A stretch of DNA of 64,000 bases, from positions 381,673-445,672 of the forward strand of contig OY970075.1 in NCBI GenBank assembly GCA_963705385.1, read 5' to 3'. Positions 26,236 through 28,300 of the stretch are shown piece after piece. Origin of the DNA: an uncultured Cytophagales bacterium (GTDB taxonomy: Bacteria; Bacteroidota; Bacteroidia; Cytophagales; Amoebophilaceae). Every line of letters starts with the position of its first letter. Position 1 is the stretch's first letter. The notes beneath the pieces were generated by a model. It was not told the origin of the DNA. It saw only the letters and a program-made list of their open reading frames with translations, and did no database searches. The translations under genes and the position numbers were made by a program.

Positions 26236-28300
26236 CCAGCCATCCTGAAGCGGCTCCTTCAGGCCGCGGGAGATTCAGACTGGAGGGTTCGCAAGGCCGC
26301 CGTCTCTGCGCTCGGGCAGCTGGCAGCAGCAGCCCCCAGCCTGGCTCCAGCCACCCTGGAGCGGCTCCTTCAGGCCGCGGGAGATTCAGACTGGAACGTT
26401 CGCGAGGCCGCCGTCTCTGCGCTCGGGCAGGTGGTAGCAGCAGCCCCCAGCCTGGCTCCAGCCACCCTGCAGCCGCTCCTCACGGCCGTACAAGATTTCA
26501 GATTCAGACGTTTGCAAGGCCGCCATCTCTGCGCTCGGGCAGGTGGTAGGAGCAGCCCCCAGCCTGGCTCCAGACACCCTGCAGCGCGCTCCTTCAGGCC
26601 GCGGGAGATAGCGATTCAGACGTTCGCAAGGCCGCTGTCTCTGCGCTCGGGCAGGTGGTAGGAGCAGCCCCCAGCCTGTCCACCCTGGAGCGGCTCCTTC
26701 AGGCCGCGGGAGATAGCAATTTATTTATTCGCAATGCCGCCGTCTCTGCGCTCGGGCAGGTGGTAGCAGCAGCCCCCAGCCTGGCTCCAGACACCCTGGA
26801 GACGCTCCTGCAGGCCGCGGGAGATTCAAACTGGAGAGTTCGACAAGCTGCCGTCTCTGCGCTCGGGCAGCTGGTAGGAGCAGCCCCCAGCCTGGCTCCA
26901 GATACCCTGCAGACGCTCCTTCAGGCTGCGGGAGATAGTGATTCAGACGTTCGCAATGGCGCTGTCTCTGCGCTCGGGGAGCTGGCAGAAGCAGCCCCCA
27001 GCCTGGCTCCAGCCACCCTGGAGCCGCTCCTTCAGGCCGCGGGAGATAGCGTTTCATACGTTCGTGATGCCGCCGTCAAGGCGCTTGGGCAGGTGATAGC
27101 CGCCGCCCCCAGCCTGGCCACTCCTGAAGCGGCTCCTTCAGGCCGCAGAAGATTCAGACTTGCACGTTCGCTGGACCGCCGTCTCTGCGCTCGGGCAGCT
27201 GGTAGGAGCAGCCCCTAGCCTGGCTCCAGACATCCTACAGCCGCTCCTTCAGGCCGCGGGAGATAGCGATTCATATGTTCGCTATGCCGCAGTCTCTGCG
27301 CTCGGGCAGGTGATAGCCGCCGCCCCCAGCCTGGCCACCCTGAAGCGGCTCCTTCAGGCCGCACAAGATTCAGACTTGCACGTTCGCTGGACCGCCGTCT
27401 CTGCGCTCGGGCAGGTGGTAGGAACAGCCCCTAGCCTAGCTCCAGAAATCCTGCAGGCGCTCCTTCAGGCCGCGAGAGATAGTAATTCCCAGGTTCAAGA
27501 TGCCGCCTTCTCTGCGCTTGGAAAGCTGGCAGCAGCAGCCCCCAGCCTGGCTCCAGACACCCTACAGCCGCTCCTTCAGGCTGCGGGAGATCGCGATTCA
27601 TACGTTCGCAAGGCCGCCGTCAAGGCGCTCGGGCAGCTGGTAGCAGCAGCCCCCAGCCTGGCCACTCTGGAGCGGCTCCTTCAGGCCGTGGGAGATTCAG
27701 ACTGGAGCGTTCGCAAGGCCGCCGTCTCTGCGCTCGGGCAGGTGGGAGCAGCAGCCCCTAGCCTGGCTCCAGCCACCCTGGAGTGGCTCCTTCAGGCCGC
27801 AGGAGATAGCGATTCAGACGTTCGCAAGGCCGCCGTCTCTGCGCTCGGGGAGCTGGTAGGAGCAGCTCCCAGCCTGGCTCCAGCCACCCTGGAGCGGCTC
27901 CTTCAGGCCGTGGGAGATTCAAACTGGAGGGTTCGCTGGACCGCCGTCTCTGCGCTTGGGAAGCTGGTAGGAGCAGCCCCCAGCCTGGCTCCAGACACTC
28001 TGCAGCCGCTCCTTCAGGCCGCGCGAGATAGTAATTCCCAGGTTCAAGATGCCGTCGTCTCTGCGCTCGAGAAGCTGGCAGTAGCAGCCCCCAGCCTAGC
28101 TCCAGATACCCTGGAGCGGCTCCTTCAGGCCGCGGGAAATAGCGATTCAGAGGTTCGCGATGCCGCTGTCTCTGCGCTCGGGCAGCTGGCAGGAGCAGCC
28201 CCCAGCCTGGCTCCAGATACCCTGCAGGCGCTCCTTCAGGCCGCGGGAGATAGCGGTTCATACGTTCGCAAGGCCGCTGTCTCTGCACTCAAGCAGCTTT
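26236..28300 (+). repeat. tandem array of ~19 HEAT (PBS-lyase-type) repeats, unit ~111 bp / 37 aa (some 105-108 bp)
   Basis: The recurring unit is LAP(A/D)TL(E/Q)xLLQAAGDSDxxVRxAAVSALGQ(L/V)xxAAPS. The LLQAAGD motif recurs about every 111 bp from ~26251 to ~28230. Confidence 0.9.

Follow-up and report, generated by a model that had tools for sequence, protein, structure and literature searches.

Within the genome of an uncultured Cytophagales bacterium of the family Amoebophilaceae (assembly GCA_963705385.1), a stretch of 64,000 nucleotides (contig OY970075.1, positions 381,673 to 445,672 of the forward strand; hereafter the window) contains a tandem array of HEAT-repeat units in which the reading frame changes three times. 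What was this array part of, and how did a sequence of such regularity come to be out of frame with itself? The original prediction, which read the array in isolation, saw near-identical units shaped by recent unequal recombination and disrupted by single-base insertions. The array and the insertions are real, but they belong to a pseudogene that spans positions 22324-28536. Most likely, the array is the HEAT solenoid of a single NLR-like gene, now inactivated and in neutral decay, in a reduced Cytophagales symbiont near Amoebophilus; the insertions are just three of ~15 lesions, and the process is ordinary gene decay. The observation behind the original prediction was confirmed, and its interpretation was partly supported.

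The HEAT array and its three insertions

Tandem Repeats Finder (TRF) detected one array at 26234-28298 of the window, on the plus strand, with a period of 111, 18.8 copies and 78% matches; for the same array a period of 327 nt scored slightly above the 111-nt period. Anchoring on GCTCCTTCAGGC resolved the array into 19 HEAT units with starts from 26253 through 28230. Of the 18 full units, 13 have a spacing of 111 nt, while units 4, 10 and 13 are of a short-linker form, at 105 nt and with two codons fewer; the exceptions are unit 3, at 113 nt, and unit 8, at 106 nt, which is itself a short-linker unit. A Pfam search of 27100-28533 matched PF13646 with 203 bits (cut-off 27.7) and PF02985 with 184.5 bits (cut-off 23.5), and the remaining pieces of the array likewise matched HEAT/HEAT_2. 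The AlphaFold2 model of 27127-28533 (pLDDT 82) shows a regular helix pair in each unit followed by a small alpha/beta tail. Its best Foldseek matches were alphaRep, the PP2A A subunit, CAND1 and karyopherins, with the alphaRep structures 6fsq, 4zv6 and 6bzx as the top fold matches at 27-30% identity. Both the profiles and the predicted alpha-solenoid of paired antiparallel helices identify the product as a HEAT repeat protein.

The unit resembles PBS-lyase-type HEAT-like repeats, and the alphaRep proteins designed from them, in its helix-turn-helix form and in the core D-x-D-x-x-V-R-x-x-A-x-x-A-L-G. Unlike the PBS-lyase-type repeats, it is 37 (or 35) aa long rather than 31 and is fused here to a NACHT NTPase; unlike PBS-lyase proteins, it has no phycobilisome link and comes from a non-photosynthetic symbiont. 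When the last open reading frame (ORF) of the array was used in a protein homologue search, the best match was a Moorena 'PBS lyase' (40% identical) and no conspecific copy was among the matches, while NCBIfam gave weak NblB/CpcF matches, far under the cut-offs. The array has a GC content of 65%, and its values at the three codon positions (GC1/GC2/GC3) are 0.79/0.54/0.62, as against 0.57/0.34/0.45 in polA. A foreign origin of this GC-rich array was considered and rejected, because the GC comes mostly from an Ala/Gly/Pro/Leu/Arg-rich composition and because GC likewise climbs, to 0.56, in the HEAT part of a homologue from a related genome (G014).

Three-frame translation follows the HEAT reading through frames (coordinate mod 3) 1, 2 and 0, and then 1 again. 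Insertions were called from an alignment of all units, as bases without counterpart in any other unit. Insertion 1, in unit 3, is an extra T in GATTTCAGAT (26494-26503; GAT[T]TCAGATTCAGAC, with a T-run at 26496-26498), which moves the reading from frame 1 to frame 2. Insertion 2 lies at the end of unit 3, where CGCG at 26585-26588 (CTGCAG-CGCG-CTCC) replaces the three bases of every other unit and moves the reading from frame 2 to frame 0. Insertion 3, in unit 8 (27121-27124), is seen as GGCCAC[T]CCTG where sister unit 10 has GGCCACCCTG, and moves the reading from frame 0 to frame 1; the extra T, within GGCCAC[T]CCTGAAG, is at 27122, and the corresponding GGCCACCCTGAAG of the sister unit is at 27333. 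The strings quoted in the original prediction were located at 26491, 26579, 26907, 27116 and 27333, and its claim that each of the three frame changes is a single-base insertion was borne out, each being private to one unit. It is the internal repeats that allow each indel to be polarised as an insertion.

In a maximum-likelihood tree of the units, the terminal branches of unit 3 (0.16) and unit 8 (0.12) are the longest or near-longest of the window array, against a median of 0.069. Unit 3 (26475-26587) combines the longest branch with two of the three insertions, and it has lost residues that are invariant elsewhere (Arg13 to Cys, Gln3 to Thr and Val17 to Ile), which makes it a local cluster of damage.

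One eroded NACHT-HEAT gene

The array is the 3' third of a gene of 6.2 kb on the plus strand. The whole extent of this gene was recognized by tblastn colinearity with an unbroken frame of 1202 aa or more in G014, in which a lipoprotein-type signal, a helical module, a NACHT domain, a linker (…VVGVQHVLLQ…) and HEAT repeats follow one another; the G014 frame stops at a contig end within the HEAT repeats. The window gene has the corresponding order of lipoprotein-type signal, helical N-terminal module, NACHT NTPase, HEAT array and C-terminal tail. Its N-terminal module (module A, 22324-23049), with a signal peptide and the lipobox-like ...ALQSC, has matches at 11 other places in the genome, ten of them at 67-76% aa identity and the eleventh at ~29%; all 11 are the N-termini of open frames.

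The NACHT core lies at 24583-25356 and was delimited by Pfam and by alignment with relatives. PF05729 matched within 24583-25467 with an E-value of 1.8e-16 and 60.9 bits (cut-off 26.7), and Walker A (GEAGTGKTT), Walker B (LVLLDGLDE) and the SRPYG motif, as LSRPYG, are kept in relatives. By profile and by its Walker A, Walker B (DGLDE) and SRP motifs, this part reads as a NACHT STAND NTPase. It is followed at 25379-25924 by a helical/winged-helix part (…YQFPHLTFQEYFAG…), assigned from translations and from tblastn against the intact relative, with a brief excursion into another frame at 25596-25697. Beyond the array, the conserved tail (28291-28533) has 82.7% aa identity to a second locus in the same genome, described below, and 46-51% to tails in the relatives G012 and G014; AlphaFold2 models it as a small alpha/beta domain of three strands plus helices. 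A Pfam search of the tail returned no family, and neither NCBIfam nor PADLOC assigned the tail, module A or the NACHT part to a specific family.

When the G014 protein was compared with the window by tblastn, the match (query residues 80-1202) was colinear from 23191 to the array and passed through frames 1, 2, 0, 1, 2, 0, 2 and 1. Where a working NACHT gene would have an uninterrupted coding sequence, there are at least ten frame changes and five in-frame stops (at 23047, 23182, 24309, 24327 and 25925) relative to the intact homologue, ~15 lesions in total, and the locus is ~78 codons shorter. At least seven of the frame changes and all five stops lie outside the array. Lesion density is 1.45 per kb in the array (three in 2.07 kb) and ~3 per kb in the non-repeat part (12 in ~3.9 kb); the array thus does not stand out, its lesion density being no higher than that of the rest. 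Judged by these sequence comparisons, 22324-28536 is one pseudogene.

The same lesions bear on whether the gene might be read through by design. The three +1 shifts add up to +3, with the reading in the same frame before the first as after the third, as would be expected if programmed +1 frameshifting or phase variation decoded or switched the array into a full-length protein. The three sites differ, though, and share no slippery or simple-sequence motif, the unshifted reading meets stops within 55 codons, the gene has seven further frame changes and five stops upstream of these sites, and the intact relatives are unshifted. Programmed frameshifting is effectively refuted by the upstream stops, and we give it hardly any credence.

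Could the extra bases instead, and perhaps the other breaks, have been introduced in the assembly or polishing of a GC-rich repeat, the real gene being intact? Several observations weigh against our reading of a decaying gene and favour this one. The region is repetitive, and the locus is the GC maximum of the window (65% vs 44%), where lower polishing coverage is conceivable. Of the ten frame changes, eight are in the +1 direction, including all three lesions of the array (binomial p ~0.055 one-tailed, ~0.11 two-sided), which may hint at a systematic insertion error; deletions usually dominate in bacterial gene decay, and hence such an excess is mildly odd. The protein collection held no conspecific second assembly, the best other PolA being 77% identical, and the individual insertions, which we take to be probably biological, are read from the assembly sequence.

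Other properties of the same assembly argue for decay. In a TRF control across the whole genome, 15 other coding tandem arrays (periods of 126-132 nt, with one row of 378; 0.66-3.4 kb; 70-91% matches; mostly TPR) each sat entirely in one open frame of 264-2424 aa, and the HEAT array was the sole split array, with at most 1199 of its 2065 nt in one frame. Because most of these arrays are at least as homogeneous as the HEAT array and yet are frame-perfect, a general repeat-assembly artefact is unlikely. Some 62 kb of paralogous genes at ~50% GC are also unbroken, none of the three insertion sites is a long homopolymer or simple-sequence tract, and the second copy has been degraded independently. 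Nor can indel errors account for the locus, because five of the lesions are substitution-type stops and ~78 codons are missing relative to the homologue. We consider an assembly or consensus artefact improbable.

The +1 excess of the pseudogene, which includes all three changes that can be polarised as insertions, may be due to chance or to a biased mutation process, or may hint at errors in the consensus.

Inactivation of the whole gene might still have left a product of its 3' end. The last open frame (27160-28536; 458 aa, with 11 HEAT units and the tail) is long and free of stops, a regular solenoid with tail is predicted for it at pLDDT 82, and the relatives contain tail-bearing short HEAT frames of 223-312 aa, many of them cut by contig ends. 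Set against its expression as a stand-alone HEAT protein, the sole start is a TTG within a repeat unit, preceded by no recognisable signal, and the frame lacks the signal peptide and NTPase present in all intact relatives. A functional remnant of this kind is very improbable. For annotation, the consequence of the decaying-gene reading is that the five or more ORFs at 24.6-28.5 kb are fragments of one pseudogene, and not separate 'HEAT repeat proteins'.

Unit duplication and the order of events

How closely related are the units, and in what order did duplication and insertion occur? Similarity at the DNA level is high, as originally noted, but falls short of near-identity: pairwise unit identity spans 67-95%, and no exact repeat within the array is longer than 55 nt. 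One two-unit block does recur. Units 8-9 (27026-27242) and units 10-11 (27243-27458) are identical at 200 of 217 nt, the extra T of insertion 3 being the sole indel, and a nearly perfect stretch of ~118 nt inside the block spans the unit boundary. The unit tree groups units 8 and 10 (support 85/93) and units 9 and 11 (99/95). The predicted recurrence of the RDSNSQVQDA unit also held: unit 12 (27459-27569) is the sister of unit 17 (28008-28118), with 89% nt identity and a support of 100/98.

A general recurrence of multi-unit blocks did not hold. Mean unit identity is flat, at 0.78-0.82, over lags 1-11, with no regular multi-unit period, and of 5000 shuffled unit orders, 2122 equalled or beat the score of the best two-unit block. 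The lack of a regular multi-unit periodicity, which the original prediction had named as a finding that would speak against it, is evident from both tests, and a regular higher-order repeat was rejected on the flat lag profile, the shuffle test and a 327-nt period barely above the 111-nt period. The data support duplication or conversion of a two-unit tract at least once, in units 8-9 and 10-11.

The units also resemble each other more within one genome than across genomes. Their mean aa identity is 73% here (range 51-91%) and 62% within an intact array of G012, but 45% between the two genomes, which indicates that the units may evolve in concert within a genome or may have expanded independently. 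Conserved residues use nearly one and the same codon across units, and variation clusters at positions 6, 9-11, 14, 22-25, 33 and 36-37 of the unit. The pooled ratio of non-synonymous to synonymous differences (pN/pS) is 1.42 at the 12 hypervariable codons and 0.43 at the other 25, an informal comparison in which the positions were picked from the same data.

The second copy, an internally deleted and frameshifted NACHT-HEAT paralogue, is at 140052-141152 of the genome (contig C1). Of module A it retains 265 nt, with 90.6% identity to window 22762-23026; joined to these are four HEAT units plus the tail, with 83.5% nt identity to window 27889-28666. Because its four units interleave with the window unit types in the tree, the unit types predate the split of the two gene copies. 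The claim of recent unequal recombination must be qualified accordingly: at least one duplication or conversion tract stands, while 'recent' can be used only in a relative sense. Each insertion, being private to one unit, would postdate the most recent duplication or conversion to affect its unit, and insertion 3 would be younger than the duplication that gave rise to units 8 and 10. The paralogous units make the indels datable to this extent, as a relative order only.

Directly after the second locus lie two tandem intact genes for PD-(D/E)XK 'transposases' (141168-142145 and 142331-143344; PDDEXK_2, E 2e-19). In the window, 3' of the NLR-like gene, 28562-28792 contains a short remnant of transposase upstream sequence (87-94% nt identity over 31-76 nt). 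With the intact pair at one and the remnant at the other, both copies of the NLR-like gene are flanked by a PD-(D/E)XK element.

We suggest the following course of events. The array would have been the sensor-like C-terminal HEAT solenoid of one large NLR-like gene, and while that gene was functional it was probably built and homogenised by tandem duplication and by gene conversion among units. Construction in a working gene is suggested because intact relatives have the same 111-nt architecture and because recA is intact in this genome, and homologous recombination is therefore available. After inactivation, point lesions would have accrued along the entire gene, three of which chanced to be one-base insertions in the array.

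A family of repeat proteins in probable turnover

The genome is a single contig of 1,055,620 bp. Its PolA puts it within Cytophagales and is 65% identical to that of Candidatus Amoebophilus asiaticus and 69-77% identical to those of metagenome-assembled genomes. Genomes of the same family measure 0.6-2.7 Mb, smaller than those of the same order (2.6-7.3 Mb), and the lineage is for this reason taken to be reduced and presumably host-associated. Three relatives of the same family yielded many NACHT homologues when related genomes were searched. The genome studied here has one NACHT match, as against 17 in G013 and 13 in G014, where they are mostly in long open frames. G012, a complete relative, has an intact gene of 1886 aa with the same signal, linker and tail, and with a HEAT array of 11 units (111 nt, 78% matches); here, too, a three-unit TRF period scored slightly higher. 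Since this intact gene shows the same architecture, a 111-nt array at 78% matches, in which the original prediction saw recent recombination, is a standing property of working members. Another large family member in G012 (C1 664500-673500, locus L030) is an open frame of 2526 aa with a HEAT array of at least 12 units of period 114 and with internal repeats of 90 and 201 nt. A search of genome contigs with the NACHT alignment, dominated by the P-loop, gave just four distant matches (Caulobacter, Maricaulis, Saprospiraceae and Haliscomenobacter) and was uninformative, and a literature search found no paper connecting Amoebophilaceae with NACHT.

In the genome studied here, the 11 frames that begin with module A are intact, at 1186-2424 aa, and together occupy ~62 kb, ~6% of the genome, at ~50% GC. 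They lie on C1 at 5425-11976, 12040-15600, 156494-160417, 244716-251990, 269531-275890, 335506-340329, 345862-352167, 677587-683841, 753686-759286, 811490-817837 and 896705-901861. Ten have the N-terminus of 67-76% identity, with signal peptide and ...LQSC lipobox; the eleventh (156494-160417) has the N-terminus of ~29% identity, which ends ...LLLQSC, and no Pfam match. Of the ten, the three that were scanned with Pfam all contain long, very homogeneous TPR_12/TPR_10 arrays of 126-nt units in up to 27 copies, and one of these three also has ankyrin repeats.

Which known system does such a gene resemble? In mode of working, the closest analogue would be the class of fungal NLRs with high internal conservation (HIC), to which we do not assign it. 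Fungal HIC NLRs join NACHT or NB-ARC to WD40, ANK, TPR or HEAT repeats (Dyrka et al. 2014, PMC4986451; 10.1101/2025.09.29.679196); reshuffled units and hypervariable positions are there considered a means of diversifying the sensor, and many of the genes are pseudogenes (PMC4986451; 10.1101/2025.09.29.679196). The window gene likewise has a NACHT NTPase followed by a superstructure-forming array of units unusually alike at the DNA level, with variation at few positions and with units that may evolve in concert within the genome, and, as is reported to be frequent in the fungal class, the copy here is dead. Unlike the fungal genes, it comes from a reduced bacterial symbiont and bears a lipoprotein-type signal and a helical module rather than a cell-death effector domain. 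The class calls for a unit identity of 85% or more over 100 aa or more (PMC4986451); the units here average 73% aa identity, with a range of 51-91%.

Among bacterial proteins, bNACHT (bioRxiv 10.1101/2022.07.19.500537) and the NLRs with internally conserved WD/TPR repeats (bioRxiv 10.1101/2020.01.06.895854) likewise combine a NACHT-type STAND NTPase with a C-terminal repeat sensor, and possible diversification of bacterial NLR repeats by unit reshuffling has been raised (10.1101/2020.01.06.895854). Unlike those genes, the one described here has a HEAT sensor and a signal peptide, and is non-functional. Searches of the window piece and of the intact relative with the PADLOC-DB defence models yielded matches of P-loop length alone (TRIP13, PDC-S73; E above 1e-5), and by this measure the gene does not belong to the known anti-phage NLR-like systems (bNACHT/Avs).

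By itself the finding matters little, being a well-documented case of a repeat-bearing NLR-like gene in decay; the more interesting lead is the family of giant intact repeat proteins with lipoprotein signals. Because 11 intact paralogues have been kept, the only NACHT-HEAT members of this genome are dead, and relatives carry 13-17 NACHT copies, the data point to a host-facing or sensing family that has undergone rapid birth-and-death turnover during genome reduction. A bolder proposal, which we hold only tentatively and think rather unlikely to be correct, is that the dead gene was the last NACHT member of a lineage-specific family of giant proteins whose internally homogenised arrays, hypervariable at a few positions, are a bacterial counterpart of the fungal HIC sensors, facing the host and diversifying by unit reshuffling. 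If this were true, intact giant family members with a lipoprotein signal and with NLR-like or repeat-sensor domains (HEAT, TPR, ANK) would make up the ~6% of a 1.06-Mb genome noted above, and the frameshifted array would be a record of the turnover of one surface-displayed receptor.

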